Virus record (IMG/VR): IMGVR_UViG_2531839662_000018
Coordinates: 1 to 12,903 of that record
Reading direction: 5' to 3' (one strand)
Length of the DNA: 12,903 bases
Source of the DNA: a virus
Taxonomy: Duplodnaviria; Heunggongvirae; Uroviricota; Caudoviricetes
Shown here: piece after piece, positions 1 to 12,903 of the stretch
How positions within the stretch are numbered: position 1 is the first letter of the stretch
Layout: each line of letters opens with the position of its first letter
Translations under genes and position numbers: made by a program
Notes under the pieces: model-generated
Database searches by the model: none
Told to the model about the DNA's origin: nothing
What the model saw: the letters and a program-made list of their open reading frames with translations, nothing else

Positions 1-1242
1 ATGGCACGAAAAACCACCCCACTAACCATTACGGAGATCAAAAACGCACGACCAGGGGAAAAGGAATACACCCTGCAGGATGGTGGAGGATTATTTCTTC
101 TGGTGAAACCCTCCGGATCAAAAATCTGGCGTTTTACGTACTATCGCCCGGCAGATAAAAAACGGACTATCATCAGCCTCGGATCGCTGAATGATGTTTC
201 CCTGTCCGATGCCAGAGAACGACGGAATGAATACAGGTCACTCATAGCGAAGGGAGTTGACCCACAGGACCACGAACGCCGGAAACGTGAAGCAGAGAGT
301 CGGAAAAAGGGCAACACGTTCGAAAAAGTTGCCTCGGACTGGTACGAGATGAAAAAAGGCCAGAATCTGGCTTACAACACGATTAAGGATATCTGGCGAT
401 CCCTGGAAAAATACGTATTCCCGTACATCGGAAACACGCCAATAGATACCCTCACAGCTCGCCGCTTTGTTGAGATACTCACACCCATTAAAGCACGCGG
501 CAACCTGGAAACCCTGAAACGCGTTTTACAACGCATCAATGAAGTGATGGATTTTGCTGCCAACAGTGGGCTGATTGACATCAACACCGCCGCGAACGTC
601 CGCAAGGCATTCCCCTCACCCACCAAAAAGCACATGCCAACCATCCGACCGGAACAGCTACCGCAGCTAATGCACGATTTATCGGTCGCCAGCATAGAAC
701 GGCAAACCAGATTGCTGATTGAGTGGCAACTGCTGACCGTAGCACGCCCAGCCGAAGCAGCCGCCGCACGCTGGGAAGAAATAGATCTCGATGCCGAAAC
801 CTGGACGATTCCAGCCGGACGCATGAAGATGCGCCGTGACCATGTGATCCCTCTTTGCGGTCAGGCGATGGCTGTACTGGAAACAATGAAGCCAATCAGC
901 GCACACAGGGAACATGTTTTTCCCAGCCTTAAAAATCCAATGCTGCCAATGAGCAGCCAGACCGCTAACGCTGCATTGCGCCGGATGGGATACGCTGGTG
1001 TGCTGGTGTCTCACGGATTACGCGCCATATTCAGTACAGCAGCGAACGAGGAAGGATTCGAGCCGGACGTAATCGAGGCCGCACTCGCACACGTGGACAC
1101 GAACGAGGTAAGGCGAGCATATAACCGAAGTAACTACCTGGAAAAGCGCGTGGTGCTTATGCGCTGGTGGGGGGAATTTGTAGAGGCCGCAGCTACCGGA
1201 GTGACCATAGCCAGTGGTAAAAGGGGTATCCGTGCCGTGTAA
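1..1242 (+). CDS. int: P4-type tyrosine integrase/recombinase (413 aa)
   Basis: Full ORF from ATG at position 1. N-terminal arm-binding region with the DGGGL motif typical of P4-family integrases (KEYTLQDGGGLFLLVKPSGSKIWRFTYY). C-terminal catalytic region has HGLR, a later AHV, and the nucleophile Tyr in RRAYNRSNYLEKRVVLMRWW. Identified by eye from conserved motifs. Confidence 0.95.
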   Translation: MARKTTPLTITEIKNARPGEKEYTLQDGGGLFLLVKPSGSKIWRFTYYRPADKKRTIISLGSLNDVSLSDARERRNEYRSLIAKGVDPQDHERRKREAESRKKGNTFEKVASDWYEMKKGQNLAYNTIKDIWRSLEKYVFPYIGNTPIDTLTARRFVEILTPIKARGNLETLKRVLQRINEVMDFAANSGLIDINTAANVRKAFPSPTKKHMPTIRPEQLPQLMHDLSVASIERQTRLLIEWQLLTVARPAEAAAARWEEIDLDAETWTIPAGRMKMRRDHVIPLCGQAMAVLETMKPISAHREHVFPSLKNPMLPMSSQTANAALRRMGYAGVLVSHGLRAIFSTAANEEGFEPDVIEAALAHVDTNEVRRAYNRSNYLEKRVVLMRWWGEFVEAAATGVTIASGKRGIRAV

Positions 1243-1340
1243 CTGTACAAAAAGCCAGTGCAACCAGTGAAAACCATGCCAAACCATCGTATAATTGCCA
1301 CAAATTTAACGACAAGGCCGGAGTATATGAAAATTCTATT

Positions 1341-1571
1341 ATGCAAAATACCACCGCCTACGGCGAAGGCCTGCAACTGGCCTTAATGGCAAATCGTGAA
1401 TTCTGGTCAACGTACGATCCGGAAGACAAATCAACAGCCCCCACAAAACACGAGGTAGTCAGTTTTTTGCGCTCGCGTGGCGCATCGAAAAATCTGGCTG
1501 AAAGCATCGACAAGGTGCTGAGACCCACCAGCCTTAAATGCGGTGGACGACCTAAGAAGTGGAAGCGGTAA
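1341..1571 (+). CDS. hypothetical small protein (76 aa)
   Basis: Open frame between int and alpA with a protein-like, charged composition. Its stop is followed immediately by an intrinsic terminator. The ribosome-binding site is weak: the nearby GGAG (1319-1322) is better placed for a 19-codon ORF at 1327. A TATAAT hexamer lies at 1290-1295. Confidence 0.4.
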   Translation: MQNTTAYGEGLQLALMANREFWSTYDPEDKSTAPTKHEVVSFLRSRGASKNLAESIDKVLRPTSLKCGGRPKKWKR

Positions 1572-1576
1572 TCACA

Positions 1577-1607
1577 ATAGCGGCCCTTTGCGGTCGCTAT
1601 TTTTTTG
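1577..1607 (+). terminator. rho-independent terminator after the int / small-ORF unit
   Basis: A roughly 9-bp stem (ATAGCGGCC / GGTCGCTAT, one G.T pair) with a CTTTGC loop, followed directly by a T7 run (1600-1606). Confidence 0.6.
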
Positions 1608-1636
1608 CAAAAAGAAAAGCGTAATCAATGAGATAA

Positions 1637-1676
1637 AAAACAGTGGGTACCGTTTTAAAACGGTGGGTACTGTTTT
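1637..1676. promoter_or_regulatory. two tandem 20-bp near-palindromic sites upstream of alpA (candidate operator)
   Basis: AAAACAGTGGGTACCGTTTT (1637-1656) is followed directly by AAAACGGTGGGTACTGTTTT (1657-1676), 18/20 identical. In each unit the 8-bp arms are inverted repeats of one another. They lie about 65 bp upstream of the alpA start. Confidence 0.4.
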
Positions 1677-1741
1677 TCCCGCCCTGCCCTGTTTTACCGT
1701 ATTTATCACCGGAATACGCCGGATTAACGAGGTAAAACATA

Positions 1742-1948
1742 GTGGAAACAATCAGAAAAATCCTTACCCGTCAGGAAGTAAAAAATATTCTGCGCATCAA
1801 GGCAGACAGTTCGCTACAGGACATGATCAACGCCGGAAAATTCCCGAAAGGCTTCAAAATCGGTCTGCGTCGTGTTGGCTGGTATGAAGATGAGGTGCTG
1901 GCCTGGCTGAAAGAACGCGAGGAAGAAGCGCGCGGAACGGCTGCGTAA
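1742..1948 (+). CDS. alpA: AlpA-family (excisionase-like HTH) transcriptional regulator
   Basis: 68-codon ORF with a GTG start and a GAGGT Shine-Dalgarno about 10 nt upstream. The sequence fits the AlpA pattern (FPKGFKIGLRRVGWYEDEVLAWL), and int followed by alpA is the canonical order in these islands. Confidence 0.85.
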   Translation: METIRKILTRQEVKNILRIKADSSLQDMINAGKFPKGFKIGLRRVGWYEDEVLAWLKEREEEARGTAA

Positions 1949-1967
1949 TGGTGTGAGGCGTAACGCG

Positions 1968-2954
1968 ATGAACATAACAAAAAGCGCCCCGTTGCCGGAG
2001 CGCCTTTGTGAACGAATAGCCTACTGCGCCATATTGCTTACTGTCTACGAGGCAGATTATAGCGTTGTGGTCGCACAGAGTGAAGGCGCTGATCACCGTT
2101 ACTACAGCACGCCAGAAATGCAGAATATTTTGCTGCAAAATGCCGTTGGTCACGCCGTCCGGAAAGCAAAAAATTTTGCTGGTGGCGCGACTGATGCGAT
2201 TTTGTCAGGTCGCCAGGTGCTGATCAATCTGATGTCTGATTTCGTTCTGGATAAAACAAAGGCGACCGCAGAGAGCCGCCAGTGGAAAAGCTACATACTT
2301 GAACGCATCACCAACAATGCCACATTTGCGGCTGGTGGGCAAAGCGTAACCGGAAAAAAATTCCGGTGGGGCTATTCCTGCTCTTTGGCCTTGCGACGCT
2401 GGCGGTATTCAACTTCTCGCTTTAATGCTGCTGTTACAAACTGCCCTGTACTTTCACCAGGCATTTTTACCGCCTCAACATTGTTCATAACTTCATGCGG
2501 AACCCTTGCCGCAACTGTTTGTGATTTTGCGTTTACTGCTTTTGTTGCCATGTTGTGTACCCCTTACAAAAAACAAATGCAGTATGCAGGAAAAAAAATA
2601 AGTGTTCAACACTTGACGTGTTTAACACCAGGGCTTAAATTGGTGTTCAACACCTTACTGATGCAAGGTGCAGAAACGACGAAACCCGGCAGTGCGCTAA
2701 CACTAACCGGGCTTCTAACCACCAACGATAGAAAGCGTATCGAGGTAGCTATGAGAAATTATACCAGACACCCGCAAGGGCGGGACTCGTACAACCTGAA
2801 TAAATACATCTGGCGTTTTATCGCCCTGAGCACGGCACAACCGCGCGTGATTCACATCGTGGCCACCAGCGAACAGGAAGCACGCCAGCAATCCCCGGCT
2901 GGCTGCGTGATGGTATTCGCTGCCCGTATTCGCCAGGAGGTACGCCATGATTAA
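1968..2954 (+). CDS. long stop-free frame (328 aa from ATG 1968); probably a composite, not one protein
   Basis: The 5-prime 400 nt has a GAGG ribosome-binding site 9 nt upstream and coding-like, purine-rich first codon positions. The middle (2372-2654) reads as Cys/Ser/Thr/Phe-rich junk, is antisense to a well-formed RHH ORF, and contains three perfect palindromes plus a promoter. The 3-prime 204 nt (ATG 2751, GAGGT site) ends in an ATGATTAA overlap with the next gene. A gene finder would likely call the whole ORF; I consider that call doubtful. Confidence 0.3.
   Translation: MNITKSAPLPERLCERIAYCAILLTVYEADYSVVVAQSEGADHRYYSTPEMQNILLQNAVGHAVRKAKNFAGGATDAILSGRQVLINLMSDFVLDKTKATAESRQWKSYILERITNNATFAAGGQSVTGKKFRWGYSCSLALRRWRYSTSRFNAAVTNCPVLSPGIFTASTLFITSCGTLAATVCDFAFTAFVAMLCTPYKKQMQYAGKKISVQHLTCLTPGLKLVFNTLLMQGAETTKPGSALTLTGLLTTNDRKRIEVAMRNYTRHPQGRDSYNLNKYIWRFIALSTAQPRVIHIVATSEQEARQQSPAGCVMVFAARIRQEVRHD
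2372..2551 (-). CDS. ribbon-helix-helix (Arc/CopG-like) transcriptional repressor candidate, 59 aa
   Basis: Minus-strand ORF MATKAVNAKSQTVAARVPHEVMNNVEAVKMPGESTGQFVTAALKREVEYRQRRKAKEQE, below the ORF-track length cutoff. It has a beta-strand/helix/helix RHH pattern, an AAGGGG Shine-Dalgarno 8 nt upstream, and G/A-rich first codon positions, while the opposite strand looks antisense. It is transcribed divergently from the adjacent palindromic operators. Confidence 0.55.
   Translation of the reverse strand: MATKAVNAKSQTVAARVPHEVMNNVEAVKMPGESTGQFVTAALKREVEYRQRRKAKEQE
2601..2654 (+). promoter_or_regulatory. rightward sigma70-like promoter overlapped by three palindromic operators
   Basis: Palindromes AGTGTTCAACACT (2601-2613), GTGTTTAACAC (2618-2628) and GGTGTTCAACACC (2642-2654). 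Candidate -35 TTGACG (2613-2618) and -10 TTAAAT (2635-2640) with a 16-bp spacer. One operator sits just upstream of the -35, one in the spacer and one just after the -10. Confidence 0.55.
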
Positions 2955-3312
2955 CCTGTCAATTTCTGACCTTAACAGCATTCAGTTTGATGAGAAATTC
3001 ACCGGGCAGCTACTGGTTAACGTGGAGAATGGACGCGTGGCAAGTAATTATCACCTGCCGGATGGTGCAATTGCCGGAAGCGTTGAAGCATTGCTGGAGC
3101 TGGCAGAACGTGCGCGACTGATTAAGCCGTTAACGAGCCATCACGATGATGATCTGCATTTTACCGGACGCATGGTGAGTCACTACGAAAACGGCGTTGA
3201 AGTATCCCGAGAACGGCTGCGAGATGATTGCTGTTTCGGAACACTGCCGGAATTTATCGAATTGCTGACCAGTTGCGGTTATCAGGTTATTCAGGGGGTG
3301 AATCATGGATAA
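2947..3312 (+). CDS. hypothetical protein (121 aa); paralog of the next gene
   Basis: Strong AGGAGG Shine-Dalgarno 6 nt upstream. The start overlaps the upstream frame stop (ATGATTAA). Its N-terminal half resembles the downstream 66-aa protein. Confidence 0.75.
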   Translation: MINLSISDLNSIQFDEKFTGQLLVNVENGRVASNYHLPDGAIAGSVEALLELAERARLIKPLTSHHDDDLHFTGRMVSHYENGVEVSRERLRDDCCFGTLPEFIELLTSCGYQVIQGVNHG

Positions 3313-3505
3313 TCAGCAAGCAACAATGACAATTACCCTGAGTGTGCCAGATGATTTCACCGGACGCATACTGGTTTACCTGGATAAAGGGAAAGTGAAA
3401 TCACAATGCCGACTGAAAAGTAATGAGATTGTTGGTTCTCCTGAATTTTTTTCTGAACTCTGTATTCGTGCGGAAATAAAACCGGAACTGCTGACAGGAA
3501 AATAA
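3305..3505 (+). CDS. hypothetical small protein (66 aa); paralog of the N-terminal half of the previous gene
   Basis: Overlaps the previous gene by 8 nt, with a GGGGGTG ribosome-binding site. The two proteins share an alignable block (DDFTGRILVYLDKGKV ... IVGSPEFFSELCIRAEIKP versus DEKFTGQLLVNVENGRV ... IAGSVEALLELAERARLIKP). Confidence 0.7.
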   Translation: MDNQQATMTITLSVPDDFTGRILVYLDKGKVKSQCRLKSNEIVGSPEFFSELCIRAEIKPELLTGK

Positions 3506-3509
3506 AACC

Positions 3510-3809
3510 ATGAAAAAGAAAAATTCTGGCTTTACTGCCAGTGGTCTCCCTCGGCCTGAAATCCGCCCCGGCGATATTTTCCGGGATAACTACGGCGGCA
3601 CGGTAACGATTAAAAGTATTGCCGGACGGTGCGTTACTTACCGCCGTGATGGGTACAGCTACGACTGCGTGATGCCTGTTTATCAGTTCCGGCGTGATTT
3701 TTCACTGATACAGGCCACACCACGCAAACAGCCCACCAGCAACGCAAAGGCACGGGCAAATATTCAGAAAATGAAAAACATGATTAACGCATTCAGGGGC
3801 ACAAAATGA
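3510..3809 (+). CDS. hypothetical protein (99 aa)
   Basis: Tightly packed in the operon; its stop overlaps the next start (ATGA). No family recognised. Confidence 0.7.
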   Translation: MKKKNSGFTASGLPRPEIRPGDIFRDNYGGTVTIKSIAGRCVTYRRDGYSYDCVMPVYQFRRDFSLIQATPRKQPTSNAKARANIQKMKNMINAFRGTK

Positions 3810-5221
3810 AACTGGCACCGAACTTAAAAAAACAGCCACACGACAAAATGACCGAAGTCATTATTTTTGCGGGTAGTGATGCCTGGGCGCACGCGAAACA
3901 GTGGCAGGAGCAGGACGGGCGACTTGCTGGCGACAACGTGCCGCCTGTATGGCTGGGAGACAGCCAGCTTGACGAACTGGCAGACCTGAAAATTATCGAC
4001 GATGGTCGCTATTGTGTCCGGCTGTACAAGGCAGGCCACATCAAGCCGTCAAATATTAACGCCATCGGGCAAAAGCTGGCGGCGGCAGGTGTACGGGATG
4101 CGAATTATTACCCCGAGGGAATGCACAGCCAGAAACGCGAGGAGTGGCGCGAATATCTGGAACGAGAGCGCCAGAAAAGACTGTCCGGAGAGATACCAGA
4201 GGAAGAAAAAAACGACCAGCGAAAAACCACACTGCCAATGAGTATTGGATCTGCAGGGTACGACACACAGCTTGATTATGTCGTTAAGGGCGTGATTCCG
4301 GCTAATTCATTGTGCAGCACATACGGCGCGAGCGGTTCCTATAAATCGTTCCTCGCGTGTTCCTGGGCGTGTCATGTTGCCACGGGTCGCCACTGGGGAG
4401 GCCGCAGGGTGGCGCATGGTTCGGTGATGTATGTCGTCGGTGAAGGTGGCATTGGTGTCCCTCGTCGTATCAAAGCATGGGAAATCGTTAATGATGAACG
4501 GGTGAAAAATCTGTACCTGGTAAACCGCCCGATTTTTCCGGCGGTCCCGCTTGATGTTGATGAAATGGTCATCGCTTCCCGTCAGGTTGAACGGGAAACG
4601 GGTAAACCGGTACGCATGATTATTCTGGATACGCTGGCGCGTTGCTTTGGCGGTAATGATGAAAATGACGCGCGGGATATGGGGGCGTTTATCCGTGGAT
4701 GTGACGAACTGAAACGACGCACAGGGGCTACGGTACTGGTGGTTCACCATTCCGGCAAGGATGAAACAAAAGGGGCGCGTGGTTCCAGTGCATTTCGTGC
4801 ATCTCTGGACGCTGAATACCGTATTCGCCGTGAAGGTGCGGACAGTGAAGCCCTGGTTATCTCCTGCACCAAAATGAAGGACGCGGAGGAACTGAAAGAG
4901 GCTGCATATGATTTACGCGTGGTGGAGCTTTTTACCGACACTGACGGGGAGTTAATCACGTCGCTGGTGGTTGTGGATAAGCCGCGCCCACCTGTTGAAC
5001 TGGAACGCATCGAGGAGGCCGGGAACAAGACGGAAAATCACGCTGCGCTATGGCAGTGCATCAGAACGCGAACAGCACACGGGGAGGCGTGCACTATCGC
5101 CCTTCTCCGCGATGATATGAAAAAGCTGGGGTATGAAATGAAAAACTTCCGGCGCTGGCTGTACAAGCTGGAAAGCGACGGCGTAATCGCTATTGACGGT
5201 GATTATGTGCGCCCACTGTAA
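3806..5221 (+). CDS. replication protein with RepA-like RecA-fold helicase/ATPase domain (471 aa)
   Basis: P-loop-like YGASGSYKSF, Walker-B-like MIILDTLARCF and the LVVHHSGKD motif typical of RepA/AAA_25-type replicative ATPases. The N-terminal domain of about 160 aa is of unknown type. The gene is followed immediately by an iteron array. Confidence 0.85.
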   Translation: MKLAPNLKKQPHDKMTEVIIFAGSDAWAHAKQWQEQDGRLAGDNVPPVWLGDSQLDELADLKIIDDGRYCVRLYKAGHIKPSNINAIGQKLAAAGVRDANYYPEGMHSQKREEWREYLERERQKRLSGEIPEEEKNDQRKTTLPMSIGSAGYDTQLDYVVKGVIPANSLCSTYGASGSYKSFLACSWACHVATGRHWGGRRVAHGSVMYVVGEGGIGVPRRIKAWEIVNDERVKNLYLVNRPIFPAVPLDVDEMVIASRQVERETGKPVRMIILDTLARCFGGNDENDARDMGAFIRGCDELKRRTGATVLVVHHSGKDETKGARGSSAFRASLDAEYRIRREGADSEALVISCTKMKDAEELKEAAYDLRVVELFTDTDGELITSLVVVDKPRPPVELERIEEAGNKTENHAALWQCIRTRTAHGEACTIALLRDDMKKLGYEMKNFRRWLYKLESDGVIAIDGDYVRPL

Positions 5222-5612
5222 AAAGTGAGGAGCAAAAGTGAGGATGGCGGGTAATTTAACAAAAAATCAACGCCACTCCTCACTTTCTCACCTGTATATA
5301 GGTCAAAAAGTGAGGAATGAAAAACATATTGTAAAACAAGACATTACAACAACAAGAAAAACAGGTGAGGAGCAGGACGGGAATAACAAAAAGTGAGGAA
5401 CAAAAGTGAGGAATGGTGAGTTAATAGAAATGAGGTAATAAAAATAACAGGTAGGTTAAAAAACACACCATGCAAGATATTAACTAAAACTTAACTATTT
5501 ACCTCACTTTTGCGTATATATAAGGATTAAAAAGTGAGTACTTAAAAATACATTTAAAATCATATTGTTATTAACTTCATAAATTTTCACTGTGCAGCAG
5601 GTGAGGAATTAA
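5221..5612. repeat. iteron array / candidate replication origin
   Basis: At least nine copies of the core AAAGTGAGGA, with CAGGTGAGGA variants, in both orientations (for example 5221-5232, 5235-5245, 5278-5287 reversed, 5305-5319, 5361-5372, 5387-5399, 5402-5415, 5501-5510 reversed, 5598-5610). They are embedded in AT-rich DNA with no ORF, directly downstream of the rep gene. Confidence 0.75.
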
Positions 5613-5687
5613 AAAATCAGGAATGTTAAAAATGAAAACAGAATGTTGTGTCAGTGCCGTTGGGCAACGTAGCAATCAGTAAAAACG

Positions 5688-6230
5688 ATGGGGCAAAGCA
5701 TGACTAAGCTGACCATTAACAGAAAACCTAAAGGCATTTACGGCACGCCGCAGAAAACGACGCAGGCGGCGCAGGAGCAGGATAAAACCACGTCGGCGCA
5801 TAAAGTGATGCCCGGTAACCAGAAAGCGCAGCAGAAGCCCACAGGGGCGACACCGTGGCGGCATATGACCAAACGCCAGCGCAAAAACCGCAGGCGCGTT
5901 AACCGCCTTATCGAACTGTGGCCAGAATTATTCAGCCGGGAAGCACCGAAGCCGCTTAAGGTGGGGATATTTGACGACCTGATGCAGGATCTCGCCGTCA
6001 GGGGGCTGGCATTCGGGCCAGGGGCATTACGTGCGACGCTGGCATCTTATGCGCAGTGTCCGCGCTATTACCGCGCCTTAATGGCTGGTGGGGTACGCTA
6101 CGACCTGAAAGGCCAGCCGTGCGGCGAGGTGACACCACAGGAACAACAGGACGCAGAAACGCGGCTGGTGGCGCTGAATGAGAAGCGCAAACGTCAGCGC
6201 CGGGCAGCAAAGGAGAAAACAGGCGCATGA
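5688..6230 (+). CDS. ProQ/FinO-domain RNA-binding protein
   Basis: The central region (PLKVGIFDDLMQDLAVRGLAFGPGALRATLASYAQCPRYYRALMAGGVRYDLKGQPCGEV) matches, from memory, the conserved ProQ N-terminal/FinO domain. Basic Lys/Arg-rich N- and C-terminal tails. An alternative start at ATG 5700 has a better GGGG ribosome-binding site. Confidence 0.85.
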   Translation: MGQSMTKLTINRKPKGIYGTPQKTTQAAQEQDKTTSAHKVMPGNQKAQQKPTGATPWRHMTKRQRKNRRRVNRLIELWPELFSREAPKPLKVGIFDDLMQDLAVRGLAFGPGALRATLASYAQCPRYYRALMAGGVRYDLKGQPCGEVTPQEQQDAETRLVALNEKRKRQRRAAKEKTGA

Positions 6231-6514
6231 TTCACGACAGCAAAGCGGAAGCACTGGAAGCGCGTGGTCTGTACCGGAGAGCGGCGGCGCGGTGGGCTGA
6301 GGTCATCATGCTGGCGAATGATGACAAGGCACGGGAACAGGCGGCAAAACGTCGCGCGGAATGTATCCGCAAGGCAGCACGCCCACCAGCACGGCAGGAT
6401 AATTTCGGGGAGATGCGCGAAACCATCAGCCGGGCACATGCCGGGATGGGATTACATCAGCCCAATGGTAAGGCATTCAGGAAATACCCTGGATCGAAAA
6501 ATTGCAGTCAGTGA
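6227..6514 (+). CDS. PerC-like small transcriptional regulator candidate (95 aa)
   Basis: The start overlaps the previous stop (ATGA). The N-terminus (KAEALEARGLYRRAAARWAEV) resembles the conserved opening of PerC-family regulators, recalled from memory without alignment. Basic, Arg-rich protein. Confidence 0.6.
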   Translation: MIHDSKAEALEARGLYRRAAARWAEVIMLANDDKAREQAAKRRAECIRKAARPPARQDNFGEMRETISRAHAGMGLHQPNGKAFRKYPGSKNCSQ

Positions 6515-6519
6515 CGGAG

Positions 6520-6544
6520 GCCGGGATTTTTCCCGGCTTTTTTG
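6520..6544 (+). terminator. rho-independent terminator 1 after the ProQ/FinO-PerC unit
   Basis: 7-bp stem GCCGGGA / TCCCGGC with a TTTT loop, followed by TTTTTTG. Confidence 0.75.
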
Positions 6545-6555
6545 TGCCAGTAAAA

Positions 6556-6590
6556 AGCCCGCAGCCAGAAGTGTTGCGGGCTTTGTTTTT
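6556..6590 (+). terminator. rho-independent terminator 2 (tandem)
   Basis: 8-bp stem AGCCCGCA / TGCGGGCT with an 11-nt loop, followed by TTGTTTTT. Confidence 0.7.
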
Positions 6591-6715
6591 CAGGTGATTG
6601 AAGTCAATGGGAAGAACGCGATCATCATGCGTTATTGTTTCATAAATTGCAATGATGTAGATCGTCATTTCAGTTTGTGCAATCATAATCGTTGTTTTGT
6701 TCAGGAGATATGACT

Positions 6716-6889
6716 ATGAGAAAAGCCAGCGTGAAACCCGTTTTACTCGCTCGTGAGCAGATTGAAGCATTACAGCGCATCCAGGACGAGGAACGCCGCA
6801 ATTCTCCGCTGGGGATTGCTCCGAGCATTCATGAGGTCGCCCGGCGTTTAATGCAGCGGGCGCTTTATCCCGTAGAACGTCCGGCCTGA
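6716..6889 (+). CDS. hypothetical small protein (57 aa), first gene of the downstream operon
   Basis: ATG at 6716 with an AGGAG Shine-Dalgarno (6703-6707, 8-nt spacing). The ORF-track start at 6692 lacks a ribosome-binding site. An AT-rich promoter-like region lies at 6600-6700. Confidence 0.55.
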   Translation: MRKASVKPVLLAREQIEALQRIQDEERRNSPLGIAPSIHEVARRLMQRALYPVERPA

Positions 6890-6928
6890 TGGTCGTGATT
6901 TTTTGGTGAAAAAAGAGAGGTGGTAACA

Positions 6929-7513
6929 ATGCCAGCAAGCAAAGAAGATTTGCGATTAAAACTGATGGAGGTGGTTAACGCTCTGTCAGAGTCGCAGGGC
7001 AGCACTCCGCAGGAGATTATCGAAATTCTGAATGCGATCCCCGCACAGGATTTCACAAAAGCAGATGAGGACAACGCGAATCAAAACATCGTCGCGTCAG
7101 TCGAAGATGAATCCTCACTGGCAGAAGCCCAGGCTAAAGCAGATTCCGCATACAGCAATATGGGCCGTCGCGCTCCAGCCCCGTTTGCTGGTGAAAAGTC
7201 GATGGATTACCGCAAGCGTGCATTAATTGGTGCACAGAAGCTGGCTAAAAAATTCAGTGATGTGGATATTCGTTCCGTTTCAGATTCTGCAACGCTGGCG
7301 GTGCTGGAAGATCAGATTTACCAGGCTGCAAAAGACAGTGTTCAGTGGGCCGTGGAAAACACGCCGGGCCATTTGGGTAAAACCGTAAGAATGGATGAAG
7401 CTGGTCGTCGTATTACTGAATATCAGGGCGATCCGAACGTCTGGCTGAACGCCTTCAAAATCCCTCCCCGTCGCCTGGTCAAAATTAACACTGCAAGCCT
7501 CGCGGGGGCATGA
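6929..7513 (+). CDS. hypothetical protein (194 aa)
   Basis: ATG at 6929 with an AGAGAGG ribosome-binding site 8 nt upstream; the ORF-track start is a GTG at 6920. Acidic N-terminal half. No family recognised. Confidence 0.75.
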   Translation: MPASKEDLRLKLMEVVNALSESQGSTPQEIIEILNAIPAQDFTKADEDNANQNIVASVEDESSLAEAQAKADSAYSNMGRRAPAPFAGEKSMDYRKRALIGAQKLAKKFSDVDIRSVSDSATLAVLEDQIYQAAKDSVQWAVENTPGHLGKTVRMDEAGRRITEYQGDPNVWLNAFKIPPRRLVKINTASLAGA

Positions 7514-7577
7514 AAAACGTGCTGAGTTCAGCCCTGCCGGATTTGGCGGGGCTTATTGCTTATAACCGGATAACATT

Positions 7578-8249
7578 ATGCTTTTAACAGAAATTGAGGC
7601 GGCAAAGCAGATTCGGGACGGTCAGCTACCGTCGCCTTATCAGTTTTCCAACATGTGGCTGGTTAACCTGCGTATTACAGGAACCGGTATGGCCTACCGC
7701 GCCGAAGAAAAAGAATTTGTCTGGCGTTCACCGCAAACTTATCTCAATCCGCAGTTCCTGGAACGTTGCGCCGGAGTACCCGTCATTATCGACCATCCCG
7801 AAGGCAAAACCATTGAAGACGTTGGCGAACGGTCGCGCATTATTGGCACCGTCATGTTGCCGTATATTCGCGGTGACGAGGTGTGGGGTGTATGCCGGAT
7901 TTACGGGCAGGAAATCATCGATTACATCCAGAAAGCACGGGGGGAGGTATCCACCAGCCCGTCGGTTGTGTTTTGTGGTGCGTCCGGTGGGGCAGAAGTT
8001 CCTGATGTAATGGGCGAGGACAATTTTTTCATTGAGGGTACGCCATTCCTTATCGATCACGTTGCGCTCGTGCCGCTTGGTGTTTGGGATAAGGGCGGGA
8101 AACCATCGGGTGTGGAGGTAACAACGCCGACAGCAGAAGAACAGCTCGCCGGAATGGTCCGGGACGTTATTGATGCGGCCTGCAAGCCAGCCCTGGAAAA
8201 ACTGGAAGAAATATCCGGGCGGCTGGCTCAACTGGAAAAAACAGAGTGA
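7578..8249 (+). CDS. hypothetical protein (223 aa)
   Basis: Protein-like composition; only a weak ribosome-binding site. A faint resemblance to phage prohead-protease-like folds (PVIIDHPEG ... IGTV ... EVSTSPSV) is too weak to call. Confidence 0.75.
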   Translation: MLLTEIEAAKQIRDGQLPSPYQFSNMWLVNLRITGTGMAYRAEEKEFVWRSPQTYLNPQFLERCAGVPVIIDHPEGKTIEDVGERSRIIGTVMLPYIRGDEVWGVCRIYGQEIIDYIQKARGEVSTSPSVVFCGASGGAEVPDVMGEDNFFIEGTPFLIDHVALVPLGVWDKGGKPSGVEVTTPTAEEQLAGMVRDVIDAACKPALEKLEEISGRLAQLEKTE

Positions 8250-8256
8250 GTGAATC

Positions 8257-8874
8257 ATGAAAATTGCTAAAAACTTAAATCTGATTATCCCTGTGCGCAC
8301 TGAAAAGGGAAATGGCTGGATCCATGCCACGCCGATCAGCAAAGAGGTGTTTAAAGAGCATTTCTTCATCCTGAGTAAAACCTTTTCTGCCATTTTTTCT
8401 GAAGGTCTTGGTGTTGTTGCGGGTCCGCGCGTTGCCTGCCTTATGCTGGAGAAAATCTCCCGTGACTCCGGTTTATGGGATGGGGAGAAAGGCATACGTA
8501 ATACGCTCATAAACGAAATTATTCGCCTGGCAAACCTTGTTTATCCAGTGGAGGGCAAAGGCTACGACACAATCCCTCTCGATATGGCGCTGGAGCGTGA
8601 AATCGTTGATTTGGACGAAGTGGCGGGTGAACTTGTTTTTTTTACATGCGTCTCGTCGATAAATTCCCCGGAGCAGACGAAGGGGACTATGGATGCGGTG
8701 AATGGAATATGGAGCACTCAATGCTCGTCCTTGAGTCTTACGGAATGGATCGCTTCATTGCCGACATTGAAGCCTGCCGTCAGTTCTGGCGCGACGGCGA
8801 ACACGTCATCAGCGACATCCTCGACTACTCAGCCGGAGCCGGATTCAGAGACATCTGTGCAGATTCCGGTCTGA
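8257..8874 (+). CDS. hypothetical protein; zero-frame product 205 aa, candidate upstream partner of a -1 frameshift pair (G-like)
   Basis: The first 129 codons are protein-like. After the T8 run (8636-8643) the zero frame becomes Ser/Thr-rich low complexity until its stop at 8874, while the -1 frame carries a well-formed ORF. Confidence 0.6.
   Translation: MKIAKNLNLIIPVRTEKGNGWIHATPISKEVFKEHFFILSKTFSAIFSEGLGVVAGPRVACLMLEKISRDSGLWDGEKGIRNTLINEIIRLANLVYPVEGKGYDTIPLDMALEREIVDLDEVAGELVFFTCVSSINSPEQTKGTMDAVNGIWSTQCSSLSLTEWIASLPTLKPAVSSGATANTSSATSSTTQPEPDSETSVQIPV
8636..8643 (+). other. T8 homopolymer forming a U UUU UUU slippery heptamer (candidate -1 programmed frameshift site)
   Basis: Zero-frame codons GTT TTT TTT ACA. 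A -1 slip re-pairs both tRNAs on TTT and continues as TAC ATG into the frame of ORF 8646-8939. Confidence 0.4.
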
Positions 8875-8939
8875 ATGTAAAAACAGCAGCTCAGTTTCGT
8901 GAGCTGCTCAAATTCAAAAATCCCGCAGGAGTATTGTAA
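8646..8939 (+). CDS. -1 frame ORF (97 aa from its first ATG), probably the C-terminal extension of a frameshift fusion (GT-like)
   Basis: This frame opens at 8631 just before the slip site. Its stop overlaps the start of the 679-aa gene (TAATG). Protein-like composition (FIADIEACRQFWRDGEHVISDILDYSAGAGFRDICADSGLNVKTAAQFRELLKF). Internal ATGs at 8709 and 8721, the latter with a GGAG ribosome-binding site, allow independent initiation as an alternative. Confidence 0.5.
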   Translation: MRLVDKFPGADEGDYGCGEWNMEHSMLVLESYGMDRFIADIEACRQFWRDGEHVISDILDYSAGAGFRDICADSGLNVKTAAQFRELLKFKNPAGVL

Positions 8940-10978
8940 TGTCAGGTAATCAGATGCCAGTTCTAACGCTGGACGTTAATGAAGAACACCTCAAACGGCT
9001 TGAGGCAATTTTTGAAAAGTATCGCAACGGGCTGATGATCGGCCCTGCCGGAACGCCGATGAAAATACCGGGGCAAAGTGGGCGCAGCGTGGGGGCAGGC
9101 TTACCCGTGGCGGCAAAATCTGGTCGGACAGGACCGGATGTATCCGGGAGAGTGAGGGACGAAAAAGGGCGCTTTGTCGGCAGCGGAAAAACAGCAGATT
9201 CGTTCGTAAGCAACTATAAAGGTCGCGGCGAAACGATGTTTGATAAGTATCTCAGCGGGCTGGGGAAAAATGCCCAACAGACGCTGAAAACTTACAAGCA
9301 GATCAATTCTACACTACAGACGACCACTTCAAGATTAAACAACCTGTTTAAAACAACCGTATCGTGGGGAACAAAACTCTCGGTTATGGGCGTTGCCGGA
9401 CCGTTTGGCTTTGGCATGATGTCCCGTAGTGTTGTAGAGAAACAGAAAAATGCAGATGAGCTGGTGGCAACGCCAGGAGAGTTAAAGGCGGCAGAAAGCA
9501 CTTATTCGCCTTATTTTTCCGGTGTTGGCAATGTGCTCAATACACTGGCAGCAGCACAAAATGATATATCGCATCCTGCCCGCGTCGGCCTGCTTAATCT
9601 GGGGCTAAATCCTGATAAAAACGCGACTGAAAACCTGCCTGTATTCCTGAAAAAGGTTGCAGCGCTGGCAAAGGAATATCAGGGAACTGGTCTTACCCAG
9701 AGCAATTTCAGAGGAATGGGGCTTGGATGGGTAAATTTTGGTCTTACTAACCAGTTAGTCAAATATCAGGACAAAATACCTGAACTCAACAAAGAGTTTT
9801 CGTTACGTGCAGCGCAGAATGATTCGTTACTGACCTCTGCACATACAAGTAAATATCAGAATCTTACCAGTAACCTGGAAAAAAACTGGGATCGGCTTAC
9901 CAGCGGATTTCAGGGAGCAATGGCGGGGAATGAAGACGCTTTAATCAGAATGTCTGATGGTACCACGAATGCTGCCCTGAATTTCATGAATGGTGAGAAC
10001 TTTAAAAGGATTCTGACTGATGTTGAAACGGGGCTGGATAAACTTGGTAAGTACGTTAATGGCCCGGATTTTAATAACGACCTGAACAATTTTGCCGAAA
10101 ACGTTGCAAAGGTCACCAAGGCACTTAGCGGATTTGTTGGTTTTGCCGTTGAACATCCCTGGCTTTTTGGGGCCGCAGTGCTTGCGGGGCCATCAAGAGT
10201 TGGTGCCGTGGCAGCCACAACAACCGGAGTTGCCGCTCGTGTTGTCGGTGGAAGTCTTCTTGGGGCTACAGCCGGAACAGTAGCAGGATTGGCTATTCCT
10301 ACAAATAACACACCTACCACCAGTGAGGAAATGAAAGGGCTGGAGGGGCGTTTCAACTTTGATTATTTTAACGAAGTGCAGGAGTGGCAAAAAAACAATC
10401 CGGGTAAGGTCTGGCCTGGAGGATTGCAGGGATTTTCAAATCAAGTAAACAGATCTGCATATTTATCCAGAGGGATCAGGAATAACAATCCCGGAAATCT
10501 TAATTTCGCAGGACAAAAAGGGGCTACTCTGGAATCGGGGCCAAATGCCCGTTTTGCCAGCTTCCCGACGATGCTGGAAGGCATTGCCGCCTTAGATCGG
10601 CAGGTAATGCTATACCTGAAACGCGGCAAAAATACGATTGATCAGATTATTGATATTTATGCCCCTTCATCTGATGGAAATAACACATCGTCCTATAAAA
10701 GCTATCTTTCTCAGTACACCGGATTAGGTGTTAAGGAGAAAATTGATGGTTCTAATTTTGAGGTCATGAAAAAGCTAATTCAGGGCATTATTAACCATGA
10801 AAATGGTGCTGCCGCTAAAGCTGTAAGTGTTGAAGATGTGATCCGGGCGCTGGCTATGAATCGTGGGATTGTCCCTGCAGCAGGAAACAATGATCAGAAC
10901 GTTAAGTTGGAAATTGTTCGGAACGCTGGTGCCGATTACTTCGCGCAACTAATTGGTGCTCAACGGTTCCTGGGATGA
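8939..10978 (+). CDS. large protein (679 aa) with Gly/Ala-rich hydrophobic core; tape-measure-like candidate
   Basis: Strong AGGAG ribosome-binding site, coupled to the upstream ORF. An Asn/Thr/Gly-rich N-terminal 400 aa. A hydrophobic segment FAVEHPWLFGAAVLAGPSRVGAVAATTTGVAARVVGGSLLGATAGTVAGLAIP (nt about 10143-10300). A C-terminal domain of about 220 aa containing the motif RGIRNNNPGNL (nt about 10471-10503). Confidence 0.9.
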   Translation: MSGNQMPVLTLDVNEEHLKRLEAIFEKYRNGLMIGPAGTPMKIPGQSGRSVGAGLPVAAKSGRTGPDVSGRVRDEKGRFVGSGKTADSFVSNYKGRGETMFDKYLSGLGKNAQQTLKTYKQINSTLQTTTSRLNNLFKTTVSWGTKLSVMGVAGPFGFGMMSRSVVEKQKNADELVATPGELKAAESTYSPYFSGVGNVLNTLAAAQNDISHPARVGLLNLGLNPDKNATENLPVFLKKVAALAKEYQGTGLTQSNFRGMGLGWVNFGLTNQLVKYQDKIPELNKEFSLRAAQNDSLLTSAHTSKYQNLTSNLEKNWDRLTSGFQGAMAGNEDALIRMSDGTTNAALNFMNGENFKRILTDVETGLDKLGKYVNGPDFNNDLNNFAENVAKVTKALSGFVGFAVEHPWLFGAAVLAGPSRVGAVAATTTGVAARVVGGSLLGATAGTVAGLAIPTNNTPTTSEEMKGLEGRFNFDYFNEVQEWQKNNPGKVWPGGLQGFSNQVNRSAYLSRGIRNNNPGNLNFAGQKGATLESGPNARFASFPTMLEGIAALDRQVMLYLKRGKNTIDQIIDIYAPSSDGNNTSSYKSYLSQYTGLGVKEKIDGSNFEVMKKLIQGIINHENGAAAKAVSVEDVIRALAMNRGIVPAAGNNDQNVKLEIVRNAGADYFAQLIGAQRFLG

Positions 10979-11029
10979 TTTAAATACACGCGCTTTCCGG
11001 CGCATTAATACAGTCTGAGGGGAAGTGTC

Positions 11030-11554
11030 ATGTTTATGAGCAAGGCAGAATATGCCAAACACAAAGGCGTAAGCCGCCAGACAGTTTACGACTGGATCGA
11101 GAAAGGCGAAGTGGTCATGTCCGGTAAAAAAATCGATGTGGAAGCGACAGAGCAGCGGAACAGCCCACCAGCACAGGGAAAAGATACCGTTTCTGAAATG
11201 TGGCCAGAGAGAACGCTGGAAATGACGTGGGGCGAGTTCTGGAAAGCAGTTAAGGCCAGAGACGGTAAAATCCCTGCACCAGTAACGGACGATGACATAC
11301 AGCAGCGTGTGCAGGATGCAGCCGGGGAATTATGCTGTGAAGTGCAATTTCTTGATGATGGTGCTATCTGCCTTGAGGATTATGCTGGGCAATATTACTT
11401 TGAGCAGTATGATTTTCGGGAAAATGCCAGGCTGGCAATTCGTATGCTGCGTTGTGAGCTCTGCTATGTTGCAGGTGATTGTCCCGATGAGCTGGATAAC
11501 TGGAGTGAAGCCGGACTAAACGCCCTGGCTGAGTGGGAAAAATCATCCCATTAA
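11030..11554 (+). CDS. HTH DNA-binding protein (174 aa), excisionase/terminase-small-subunit-like N-terminal HTH with Cys-rich C-terminal domain
   Basis: GAGGGGAAG ribosome-binding site. The N-terminus (KAEYAKHKGVSRQTVYDWIEKGEV) is a classic HTH of the Xis/AlpA/TerS-Nu1 type. The C-terminal half has six Cys (CCEVQF ... CLEDY ... CELCYVAGDC). Confidence 0.8.
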   Translation: MFMSKAEYAKHKGVSRQTVYDWIEKGEVVMSGKKIDVEATEQRNSPPAQGKDTVSEMWPERTLEMTWGEFWKAVKARDGKIPAPVTDDDIQQRVQDAAGELCCEVQFLDDGAICLEDYAGQYYFEQYDFRENARLAIRMLRCELCYVAGDCPDELDNWSEAGLNALAEWEKSSH

Positions 11555-11565
11555 TGACCGTAAAA

Positions 11566-11857
11566 TTCGCGAAAAGTGTCAAGTCAGGCCGTCTGCCGGG
11601 TTGACACTTTACACTCTGAACGCGAAAAAGTGTCAACCTCGCTGTAAACCCCGCCGTTACTGGCTTTGCGCCAGATTTACCACGTCAAAAAGCCGAAAAA
11701 ATCGCGAAAAGTGTCAAGTTGCCATGCTTAGAAATGCTAAGGTTTGATAAGGTTTTTCGCGAAAAAGTGTCAAGTGTGTCAACCTGCGATGTTAAGGTTT
11801 GTTAAGGTCTTAAGCCGGAAAGTGTCAACCAGCCCCCTAAGATTTCCTAAGGTGTAA
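11566..11857. repeat. array of two interleaved short repeat families (candidate protein-binding or packaging/origin-like site)
   Basis: Family 1 is CGCGAAAAGTGTCAAG and variants (11566-11584, 11621-11638, 11702-11720, 11757-11784, 11817-11830, plus an inverted copy TTGACACTTT at 11601-11610). Family 2 is (C/T)TAAGGT(T/C)T in six copies (11738-11757, 11791-11814, 11836-11857). The region has no ORF. Confidence 0.7.
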
Positions 11858-11860
11858 ATC

Positions 11861-12040
11861 ATGACCATCACCGAAGCCGATATGCTGGAGATGATCCGCA
11901 GCATTGCCGGAATCAGACAACCAGCAAGCAAAATTAACAGGTGTTCAGCGCCTGTTTCCGTTGTGCTGCAACAGGAGCGCCACCAGCATGATGATGTGAG
12001 GCCGTATCAGTGGCGGAAACCGGACAGGCCGCGACGGTGA
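11861..12040 (+). CDS. short paralog (59 aa) of the terminal gene, with an internal deletion
   Basis: MTITEADMLEMIRSIAGIRQPASK ... RPYQWRKPDRPRR. Both ends are homologous to the 94-aa protein at 12619-12903 by eye at DNA and protein level, but about 40 central residues are missing. It has an AAGGTG ribosome-binding site and is below the ORF-track cutoff. Confidence 0.45.
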   Translation: MTITEADMLEMIRSIAGIRQPASKINRCSAPVSVVLQQERHQHDDVRPYQWRKPDRPRR

Positions 12041-12148
12041 GCGGAGCGTTCGGTAAGGCTACAGCCAAGCCTTACATTAAGCCTACGGGTAACCCTTCGA
12101 AGGGGCTTTAAAGGGGAGATGATTATCCTTACCCGTTGATAAACAAGC

Positions 12149-12168
12149 AAACCTCAAATTTGAGGTTT
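12149..12168. promoter_or_regulatory. perfect 20-bp palindrome AAACCTCAAATTTGAGGTTT (one of a pair)
   Basis: Perfect inverted repeat. A related copy AAACCTCGATTTGAGG lies at about 12349-12364, roughly 200 bp downstream. Confidence 0.4.
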
Positions 12169-12466
12169 GTATCTGCCTGACTTATTTTTGTGCTAAGTTG
12201 TTGATATATCCGACGACGCAAAATTGCGCTGGCTACATCCCTCACATCTGAGGACTGTTAACCAGCAGGCCGGAATATATTCACAAACTACGAAATTTTC
12301 GCAGTTTAATTACTCGCCAGCTTAATCGCTAACCCACTGATATTTTCGGAAACCTCGATTTGAGGAGACCGGAACGTCTACATGACTGCATCACCATAAC
12401 GATTTCCGTTACAGTTGATGTGCTTTTTTGCTGGTAAGGCCTAACCCGTTGATTCTTCCACAATTC

Positions 12467-12518
12467 CCCATTGGGGGAGGCTGGGCGGCCTGCTGTGGAC
12501 TTTTCCACCATTGGTGGG
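12467..12518. promoter_or_regulatory. pair of related palindromes upstream of the terminal gene (candidate operator)
   Basis: CCCCATTGGGG (12467-12477) and CCACCATTGGTGG (12506-12518) share the core CCATTGG, with centres 40 bp apart, about 100-150 bp upstream of the ATG at 12619. Confidence 0.4.
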
Positions 12519-12618
12519 AAACATGGCACCACATCCACCAGCTTAAACGCGCTTCACCTTCCCGTTATCAGTCGCCACAATTACGGCATTGTTTCCCCAT
12601 CCTCTGGAGGCCATGACA

Positions 12619-12903
12619 ATGACCGAAGCCGAAATGCTCAAAATGATTCGCCAGATTGCCGGGATCAGACCACCAGCAGGCAAACAGGAGGCCACGCAGC
12701 CGGACAGCGTGATAGCCGAAAATTACGCGCGTGTGGTGGCTGAGGTGATGCGCCGTGACGGTATCGAGCTTAACGGCGTTGATATGCGCGACATACGAAT
12801 CAGAGTTCTGGAGATGTTGTCATATCGTCGCCGCGTGGAGATGTACCGGGAGAGCGAGAAAAAGACTTACCAGTGGAAAAAACCGGAGCGGCTGCGTACG
12901 TAA
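12619..12903 (+). CDS. hypothetical small protein (94 aa)
   Basis: ATG at 12619 with a GGAGG Shine-Dalgarno at 8-nt spacing; the ORF-track starts at 12589 and 12613 lack a good ribosome-binding site. Highly charged, protein-like sequence (MTEAEMLKMIRQIAGIRPPAGKQ ... KTYQWKKPERLRT). The stop is the last codon of the window. Confidence 0.75.
   Translation: MTEAEMLKMIRQIAGIRPPAGKQEATQPDSVIAENYARVVAEVMRRDGIELNGVDMRDIRIRVLEMLSYRRRVEMYRESEKKTYQWKKPERLRT

Follow-up and report, generated by a model that had tools for sequence, protein, structure and literature searches.

The pac site of SPP1 (pacL-pacC-pacR) and the cosB site of lambda (R3-I1-R2-R1) are built alike: two clusters of repeats that bind the terminase small subunit (TerS) flank a spacer, the DNA between the sites is bent or bendable, and the whole extends over about 200-300 bp. 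The cosB repeats of lambda are established terminase recognition sites. Among phage satellites, the Rpp proteins follow a design principle in which a terminase DNA-binding head is joined to an unrelated body (PMC6739421). In SaPIs, the pac site is followed by the accessory genes and then by the end of the SaPI (PMC12829572), and in P4-like satellites a defence hotspot lies near cos (PMC11364771, PMC9122126). Many enterobacterial PICI-like islands have no Rpp, cos mimic, terminase or capsid genes by which their entry into helper capsids could be explained.

In the present study, we analysed a stretch of 12,903 nucleotides (hereafter, the window) that is recorded as a virus of the Caudoviricetes (IMG/VR record IMGVR_UViG_2531839662_000018, positions 1 to 12,903). 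A preliminary description, made from the letters alone, had drawn attention to a gene for a helix-turn-helix (HTH) protein of 174 amino acid residues and to an array of two repeat families behind it. We found that the gene and the array form a module shared by many enterobacterial islands, and we propose that this module may determine how the satellite is packaged. In the literature, we found no description of the island, its protein accessions, the protein family, or the array.

The island and its gene order

The chromosome of E. coli UMNF18 contains a stretch identical to the window, and the island lies there beside tRNA-Pro, between yejM and yejO. A partial repeat of the tRNA 3' end (attR-like) is found about 330 bp past the right end of the window. 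Judging from its make-up, the element is a PICI-like phage satellite: it has an integrase, an AlpA-type regulator, a replicase with an adjacent origin, a size within the range of about 10-15 kb, and no full virion set. The annotation, based on Pfam, PHROG, and RefSeq, gave the following order on the + strand; the origin and one small gene to which we return are given with their coordinates.

Island genes 1: P4-type tyrosine integrase, AlpA-like HTH, Icd-like, DUF4222
Island genes 2: RepA-family helicase, AT-rich region with iterons, ProQ/FinO, PerC, 57-aa protein
Island genes 3: morphogenesis-like block (DUF2213; a 679-aa protein with a lytic transglycosylase domain)
Island genes 4: 174-aa protein (HTH174), repeat array, two small paralogous ORFs
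About 5220-5540: origin iterons AAAAGTGAGGA, seven copies, in the AT-rich region after the RepA-family helicase gene
6716..6889, + strand: h57 (57 aa), ribbon-helix-helix-like, co-conserved with HTH174 across the family

In the annotation of the 12.9-kb window, there were no terminase, portal, or major capsid genes. TerL was absent from the window and from the related islands, and neither Rpp nor a recognisable cos was found in the island; therefore, some other packaging determinant is needed.

In the islands, HTH174 is the last conserved core gene and is followed by the array, the variable cargo, and attR. The cargo 3' of the array differs among relatives; in O104:H4 C227-11, for example, it includes a PARIS-like AAA ATPase and a DUF4435 protein (PARIS as defined in PMC9122126). 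Only the integration and replication genes, one small RHH-like protein, and the module of HTH174 and array are conserved across these islands. In the window, the array is followed by a 59-aa ORF, starting at 11861, which is a copy of a 94-aa ORF further on with an internal deletion.

The HTH174 protein

The ORF of 174 aa was confirmed, and its product has two domains.

11030..11554, + strand: HTH174 gene (174 aa, two domains)

A winged-HTH of the small-terminase/excisionase (MerR-like) type spans residues 1-44, and a disordered linker (45-58) connects it to a compact alpha/beta domain (59-170). AlphaFold modelled the whole protein with a confidence (pLDDT) of 89 and the C-terminal domain, taken by itself, with 95.

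The best PHROG match of HTH174 was phrog_57, 'terminase small subunit' (E 4.8e-7), at profile positions 11-57 only. When the N-terminal peptide was used, the sole significant phage matches were TerS of Serratia phage BZS1 and of Citrobacter phage phiNP (E 1e-4 and 3e-4, respectively). In BLASTP, HTH174 was 47-49% identical over 38-41 aa to TerS of BZS1, phiNP, and E. coli prophages, all of which are full-length members of phrog_57. Weak matches were obtained with TIGR01764 'excise' and phrog_575/66. The winged-HTH is of the Xis/MerR type, and the same fold occurs in BldC, Cox, MerR-type, and RacR/CI-like regulators.

For the C-terminal domain (59-170), we found no known structural relative, and it resembles neither the TerS oligomerisation domain nor Rpp. 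The architecture of TerS, with an oligomerisation core and a TerL-binding C-terminus, is absent from HTH174, and our searches found no full-length phage homolog. As the N-terminus is terminase-like and the C-terminus is unrelated, HTH174 is, as read from its sequence, a chimera of a terminase DNA-binding head and an unrelated, fast-evolving body. Among the homologs, the first 42 residues are 71-86% identical and the C-terminal domain falls to 20-23%, with the 10-bp core of the array sites invariant. The C-terminal domain had been described as Cys-rich. This is not a conserved feature, and a Cys-rich metal-binding domain was rejected, since no Cys is invariant among 54 homologs.

The repeat array

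The features of the array are as follows.

11568..11583, + strand: site 1, CGCGAAAAGTGTCAAG, with the core AAAGTGTCAA at 11573-11582; in the Escherichia subgroup only
11599..11610, - strand: site 2, inverted copy GGTTGACACTTT, left arm of the universally conserved inverted pair
11621..11638, + strand: site 3, CGCGAAAAAGTGTCAACC, which lies 16 nt from site 2 and is the right arm of that pair
11639..11702: spacer of about 65 bp, which splits the proximal cluster (sites 1-3) from the distal cluster (sites 4-7)
11703..11718, + strand: site 4, CGCGAAAAGTGTCAAG
11727..11757, + strand: second-family pair 1, CTTAGAAATG CTAAGGTTTG ATAAGGTTTTT, 10-bp-phased, with T-tracts
11758..11784, + strand: sites 5 and 5b, CGCGAAAAAGTGTCAAGTGTGTCAACC, two overlapping cores 9 bp apart
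11790..11815, + strand: second-family pair 2, TGTTAAGGTTTGTTAAGGTCTTAAGC
11814..11830, + strand: site 6, CCGGAAAGTGTCAACC
11837..11853, + strand: second-family pair 3, CTAAGATTTCCTAAGGT

The 9-mer AAGTGTCAA occurs in six exact copies (+ strand at 11574, 11628, 11709, 11765, and 11820; - strand at 11601), and a seventh GTGTCAA core is located at 11776, in agreement with the at least six copies noted earlier. When both strands were searched, all seven GTGTCAA copies of the window fell in 11576-11828. We compared this clustering with 1000 first-order Markov simulations of the window, in which GTGTCAA reached a maximum of 3 copies per 300 bp (observed, 7) and TAAGGT, the motif of the second family, a maximum of 3 per 150 bp (observed, 5); neither observed cluster was reached in any simulation. 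The inverted pair GTGTCAA-18 bp-TTGACAC of the preliminary description is present (11576-11582 / 11601-11607), and a longer inverted pair, GGTTGACACTTT / AAAGTGTCAACC, with a spacer of 16 nt, is found at 11599-11610 / 11627-11638. The full 16-mer quoted before, CGCGAAAAGTGTCAAG, is exact at two positions (11568 and 11703); the other copies have one extra A or another 5' flank. The spacer at 11639..11702 is partly conserved (GTTACTGG...) and holds a small palindrome, CTGGCtttgcGCCAG; should the array be a pac site, the candidate cleavage region would be this spacer. The GC content of the array is 0.40-0.48, i.e., the array is not AT-rich, and no IHF consensus was found within it. A copy, AAGTGTCAT, at 11023 might have been an autoregulatory site at the start codon of HTH174; it is specific to this window, and this candidate was rejected.

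Five of the nine TAAGGT copies of the window lie within 11738-11853. Six copies of YTAAGGT had been counted; four are exact (11737, 11792, 11802, and 11847), and two have one mismatch (ATAAGGT at 11747 and CTAAGAT at 11837). These repeats form three pairs with a 10-bp period, and since each pair is placed after a GTGTCAA site, the earlier description of the two families as 'interleaved' is correct. A composite unit of 40 nt (a TAAGG pair and then CGCGAAAAAGTGTCAA) recurs 55 bp apart. The last TAAGGT copy in the window is also the ribosome-binding site of the 59-aa ORF. In a distant subgroup of relatives, the position of the second family is occupied by GTTATGGTTTGTTATG or GTTAGnnnnnGTTAG; here, too, the period is 10 bp and a GTGTCAA site comes after the repeats. 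Thus the place of the second family is conserved and its sequence drifts, whereas the GTGTCAA core does not drift.

The co-conserved h57 may be a second DNA-binding partner of the module. The idea that h57 reads the second repeat family gained no support: the repeats drift, the strand with which h57 would contact DNA is invariant, and the two therefore do not covary.

Linkage of the gene and the array across relatives

By protein search, we obtained 70 relatives of HTH174, all from Enterobacterales and annotated no further than 'hypothetical' or 'HTH'; one source calls a homolog 'Repressor'. We then examined 33 genome loci chosen by protein similarity, one genome per species, from Escherichia, Rouxiella, Raoultella, Buttiauxella, Pantoea, Lelliottia, Enterobacter, Mangrovibacter, and Pseudocitrobacter. 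The array was found downstream of most full-length homologs, and the motif AAAGTGTCAA lay directly 3' of the gene even for homologs that were merely 37-39% identical.

The scan of IMG/VR relied on DNA alone, with the pattern TTGACACTTT-N12-22-AAAGTGTCAA. The inverted pair was found on 106 contigs, 102 of which encode a homolog of HTH174, and on these 102 contigs the stop codon of the homolog is 7-80 nt upstream of the pair. Over 104 non-identical loci, the skeleton of the array is an inverted pair (- and then +), 26-27 nt from start to start, with one to four more + copies 80-250 nt downstream; the Escherichia subgroup has one additional + copy ahead of the pair. Among relatives, the distance from site 1 to the inverted site shifts in 8-bp steps, so that this part of the geometry is not tightly constrained. 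In the same 104 loci, the 350 bp 3' of the gene contained 11.07 sites per kb, against 0.041 per kb in the remainder of the loci. As the sites are confined to the array, there is one target locus per element, as with pac or cos and unlike a regulon. The region upstream of the HTH174 gene is not conserved among relatives, and the distant subgroup has an intrinsic terminator directly upstream of the gene.

As a cis element, the array is conserved together with the gene in different genera, and consequently it is not the lineage-specific remnant, absent from relatives, that the preliminary description had allowed for. The module was present in 166 of the 5426 complete E. coli genomes, as well as in many other genera, and it is this wide distribution that makes it of interest.

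Arrays beside phage terminase genes

The closest relatives of the DNA-binding domain of HTH174 adjoin arrays of their own. In BZS1, the annotated left cohesive end occupies bases 1-12, terS starts at base 75, and three GGTAACA repeats lie between them. The arrangement is the same in phiNP and in a prophage of E. coli C8, with 3 GGTAACA copies between cosN and terS. In a prophage of E. coli EC22, the cosN-terS interval is 190 bp long and contains seven GGTAACA (five on the + and two on the - strand), which are all the copies in the 5.7-kb locus. Across BZS1, phiNP, C8, and EC22, the copies lie within 150 bp and point in both directions. From the comparison with lambda cosB, the GGTAACA arrays of BZS1-type phages are probably terminase recognition sites. 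They are arrays of the same kind as that of HTH174.

Possible function of the module

We put at about even the chance that HTH174 and the array constitute the packaging-specificity module of a PICI-like satellite, one that works like Rpp or SaPI TerS and belongs to neither family. In the mechanism that we propose, the N-terminal winged-HTH, as a copy of the DNA-binding domain of lambda-like TerS (phrog_57, Nu1-type), would bind the 10-bp sites AAAGTGTCAA, using the inverted pair just past the stop codon and one to four direct copies 80-250 bp on. The GTTAAGG-like repeats, phased at 10 bp and carrying T-tracts, would bend the DNA or bind a second factor, and would thus be the counterpart of the IHF site between the R sites of lambda cosB. 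A wrapped nucleoprotein complex would then form at a single place in the element. The fast-evolving C-terminal domain would stand in for the part of a true TerS that oligomerises and binds TerL, and would capture the terminase of the helper (TerS or TerL); helper capsids would then fill with satellite DNA, starting at the array, where the complex would initiate packaging. As the C-terminal domain is unlike the TerS oligomerisation domain or Rpp, its contact with a terminase is purely what we infer.

The preliminary description had offered, as one hypothesis, a packaging-redirection module of the Rpp/cos type. The conserved cis element tied to the gene speaks for such a module, and the layout, in which the last core gene is followed by the array, variable cargo, and attR, fits it; what did not stand is the assignment to a strict Rpp/cos system, which is treated below. 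The search for cosN-like sites or homology to a helper cos, recommended earlier, gave none: the window contains no cosN of the lambda, P2, or BZS1 type (for lambda cosN, nothing above chance and nothing near the gene), and the array and the conserved block after it in relatives have no likeness to any phage record. We identified no helper phage; prophages with a phrog_57-type terminase occur in 59 E. coli genomes, of which UMNF18 is not one. Other observations also count against the packaging reading. The sites lie downstream of the gene, unlike those of lambda cosB/Nu1 and of cos/rpp; excisionases, Cox, and BldC-type regulators share the fold of the head and also bind repeat arrays; and the variable distance of site 1 from the inverted site leaves part of the geometry loose.

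A broader claim would be that these islands represent an undescribed and widespread form of satellite packaging, in which an adaptor with a TerS head, a helper-capturing domain of new fold, and a private downstream 'pac' array act with no helper cos copied; this we advance tentatively, as possible and somewhat less than probable. As a hotspot of defence genes lies just past the array, the same site could also drive cargo shuffling or lateral transduction. The module thus offers a testable answer to the packaging of this satellite class. If it is the packaging determinant, it would provide a sequence signature for the class, its variable C-terminal domain would be a handle for finding helpers, and the piling up of defence cargo (PARIS-like) right after the module would be explained.

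A serious rival to the packaging reading is a regulator or insulator at the junction of core and cargo. HTH174, like MerR, BldC, or Cox, would coat the array and repress, activate, or insulate transcription from the core operon into the cargo, where we take the core operon to be helper-induced and the accessory (defence) genes to be constitutively expressed. On the evidence that follows, we think this unlikely. The fold of the head is indeed common to BldC, Cox, MerR-type, and RacR/CI-like regulators, and one homolog bears the name 'Repressor', but by sequence the DNA-binding domain is most closely related to terminases and not to regulators, and a C-terminal domain that diverges so rapidly is more to be expected of a partner in an arms race than of a housekeeping regulator. 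The array lies exactly at the junction of the core operon and the cargo; however, neither subgroup has a sigma-70-like promoter in the array, and six to seven sites over 255 bp, with a spacer of 16-17 nt in the inverted pair, would make an unusual operator. The terminator directly upstream of the gene in the distant subgroup suggests regulated read-through, and the last TAAGGT copy in the window is the ribosome-binding site of the next ORF, but both the downstream gene and its distance vary among relatives. This variation and the lack of a sigma-70-like promoter in the array also weaken the idea, raised before, that the array is an operator for the downstream small gene.

The array could instead be another kind of architectural site, namely, that of an Xis/Cox-like directionality complex, a single-protein partition centromere of the pSK1 Par type that would serve the excised, replicating form, or a site related to replication, which we consider quite improbable. 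Proteins of these kinds bind arrays of direct and inverted repeats, and the weak matches to TIGR01764 'excise' and phrog_575/66 point in the same direction, but the islands already have their own AlpA-type HTH gene next to int, and no partition ATPase is present. The distance between the array and attR varies with the cargo, from about 1.4 kb in UMNF18 to 3.6 kb in L014 (more than 2 kb in the thrW islands), and att arm sites were rejected on this distance and on the variable cargo in between. With regard to replication, the preliminary description had suggested a second origin, and also that one protein family reads both the array and the origin iterons, which share a half-site, AAAAGTG. The half-site exists in the window, where the origin spans 5221-5536, and is not conserved in relatives. 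The replicase-specific iterons, which lie elsewhere in the islands, are GCGGGATAT, GGTAGACAGTT, GGTATACACGGT, or GGGTAGA in relatives, according to the type of replicase, whereas the array motif is the same in all. The sharing of AAAAGTG is therefore a coincidence, common reading of the two arrays is not supported, and a second origin is unlikely, the more so as the array is not AT-rich. It would be more surprising still, and we give it almost no weight, if the array acted as RNA, with base pairing in the HTH174 3' UTR between the inverted copy and the direct copies that flank it, as a ProQ/FinO target or as alternative hairpins. Site 2 could pair with site 1 or with site 3, to both of which it is complementary, giving mutually exclusive hairpins, but the predicted fold is no more stable than that of shuffled sequence (z = -0.21), no Rfam family matched, and a structured RNA was rejected. 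The arms are invariant and do not co-vary, and the unpaired distal direct copies are equally conserved. A ProQ/FinO protein is encoded by the island, but in the subgroup B islands the array is present and ProQ is absent.

Comparison with known systems

The Rpp proteins of cos-type PICIs of E. coli (RppA and RppC of EcCICFT073; PMC6739421, PMC9026076) are like HTH174 in several respects. Their N-terminal winged-HTH mimics the DNA-binding domain of the helper TerS, and the C-terminal part attached to it is unrelated and poorly conserved; the core genes end with this gene, and the accessory region comes next; and a private recognition sequence, unlike that of the helper, is proposed. The winged-HTH of HTH174 is likewise structurally equivalent to the TerS DNA-binding domain. 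However, neither the family profile nor the N-terminal peptide, searched against all PDB sequences including RppC, gave any similarity to RppC at E<=1 or E<=10. HTH174 has 174 aa and a globular alpha/beta C-terminal domain, whereas Rpp has 135-153 aa and a coiled-coil helix. There are 6-7 putative sites downstream of the HTH174 gene, as opposed to one proposed R3-like site upstream of rpp, and no lambda-type cosQ/cosN occurs near HTH174, whereas in Rpp systems a helper-type cosQ/cosN lies about 100 bp upstream of the gene. Strict membership in the Rpp/cos systems thus fails on the lack of RppC similarity, the lack of cosN, and the position of the sites downstream rather than upstream.

The DNA-binding domain of HTH174 is closest to TerS of phrog_57 (BZS1, phiNP, and E. 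coli prophages), not to lambda Nu1. The two DNA-binding domains are 47-49% identical, and in both cases the gene adjoins an array of a 7-bp motif in direct and inverted copies (3-7 copies in the phages). Only the first ~45 residues are common, the oligomerisation and TerL-binding parts are missing from HTH174, and there is no adjacent terL. The motif is GTGTCAA in the satellite and GGTAACA in the phages, and the satellite array is 3' of the gene without cosN alongside, in contrast to the phage array, which lies before terS.

In the SaPIs, TerS and pac resemble HTH174 and the array in that the last gene of a helper-induced operon is followed by accessory genes up to attR, and in giving the satellite, as we propose for HTH174, a packaging specificity of its own. 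The SaPI protein is a TerS homolog over its whole length and takes the place of the phage TerS, whereas HTH174 keeps the DNA-binding domain only. Like SPP1 pac and lambda cosB, the array has two repeat clusters around a spacer over about 200-300 bp; unlike in lambda cosB, the bending element would be the phased T-tract repeats and not an IHF site. P2 Cox, the Xis proteins of lambda and mycobacteriophages, and BldC have one domain and 50-90 aa, and they act at promoters or att sites, whereas HTH174 has an extra domain of 115 aa and sites that lie away from att and from any recognisable promoter.

HTH174 is thus neither an Rpp, from which it differs in sequence, cos position, and architecture, nor a TerS, from which it differs in full-length structure and in adjacency to terL. 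If the module is the packaging determinant, it would represent a second, independent borrowing of a terminase DNA-binding domain by satellites, alongside Rpp.

Replication origin and genes upstream of the HTH gene

The replication origin of the island lies at 5220-5540 of the window, where seven copies of AAAAGTGAGGA, in direct and inverted orientation, occupy an AT-rich stretch immediately 3' of the RepA-family helicase gene. At the equivalent position in relatives with other replicases, the iterons are different. Between the origin and the gene for HTH174, the 174-aa protein with a TerS-like N-terminal winged HTH, we found the following features:

6716-6889, 57-aa protein with a ribbon-helix-helix-like pattern (a VKPVLL strand and two helices)
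6929-10978, morphogenesis-like block

The 57-aa protein matched no family in Pfam, NCBIfam, or PHROG. It is co-conserved with HTH174 in almost all related islands, usually encoded one to five genes upstream. The morphogenesis-like block encodes a 194-aa protein, a DUF2213 protein with a weak match to head maturation proteases, a protein of 205 aa, and one of 679 aa whose C-terminus carries a lytic transglycosylase domain. Only some relatives have this block; others, the O104:H4 island among them, have unrelated genes in its place. The block has the appearance of a second module that is variable and directed at the helper.

Terminator upstream of the HTH gene and sequences related to its domains

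In L014 and most other loci of the distant subgroup B, a strong intrinsic terminator, AGGCCGCCTGAGGGCGGCTTTTTT (7956-7975 in L014), ends about 25 nt upstream of the start codon of the HTH gene and thus leaves no space for a promoter. Expression of the gene in these loci would require read-through or antitermination.

In P0051, a 226-aa protein from E. coli, an AntA/AntB antirepressor N-terminal domain is joined to residues 85-174 of the C-terminal domain of HTH174 (82% identity). P0051 is probably a deletion product from a decayed island, yet demonstrates that this C-terminal domain is able to occur without the HTH. In Lelliottia wanjuensis (L021), the segment coding for the N-terminal 43-aa HTH exists in three separate copies within 4 kb, each 70-74% identical to HTH174:

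4386-4514, HTH segment
6192-6320, HTH segment
8001-8129, HTH segment

Spacing within the array and a similar array elsewhere

Directly 3' of the HTH174 gene, the array of GTGTCAA sites and TAAGGT-like repeats varies in its internal spacing. In the E. coli relatives L064, L081, L117, L089, and L137, the interval from site 1 to the inverted site (corresponding to 11583-11598 of the window) contains one to seven copies of an 8-bp tandem repeat, GCTTGCCA; site 1 therefore moves in 8-bp steps relative to the inverted pair. The repeat may be prone to slippage, and its copy number may tune the proposed complex.

In L057 (IMGVR_UViG_3300012979_000276), an unrelated AT-rich phage contig, AAGTGTCAAG, TTGACAC, and GTGTAAA motifs are densely arrayed in an intergenic region at 3900-4150, with no HTH174 homolog near them. 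This array may reflect convergence on a site that contains TTGACA; alternatively, it may be a promoter cluster.

Region 3' of the array and the cargo boundary

Three features follow the array in the window:

11861-12040, 59-aa ORF
12041-12618, non-coding stretch of 580 bp
12619-12903, 94-aa ORF (phrog_1561)

The 59-aa ORF is a paralog of the 94-aa ORF with an internal deletion: both ends are kept, the first 73 nt are 82% identical, and the C-terminal YQW(R/K)KP motif is common to both. The non-coding stretch contains a perfect 22-bp palindrome, CAAACCTCAAATTTGAGGTTTG (12148-12169). Of the four matches to the IHF consensus in the window, three fall in this stretch, each on the - strand (12194, 12330, and 12442).

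In many relatives (79 related loci), a conserved block ending in CTCTAAGTTACAGTTG is the point of divergence into variable cargo. The block may serve as a promoter for the cargo (it has a -10-like TACAGT) or mark a recombination boundary. Only GTTACAGTTG of this block is retained in the window, at 12408-12417. In the related island inserted at tRNA-Thr in E. coli O104:H4 C227-11 (L035), the 2011 outbreak strain, the array is directly followed by an AAA ATPase and DUF4435 pair (13611-15567), a PARIS-like defence system.
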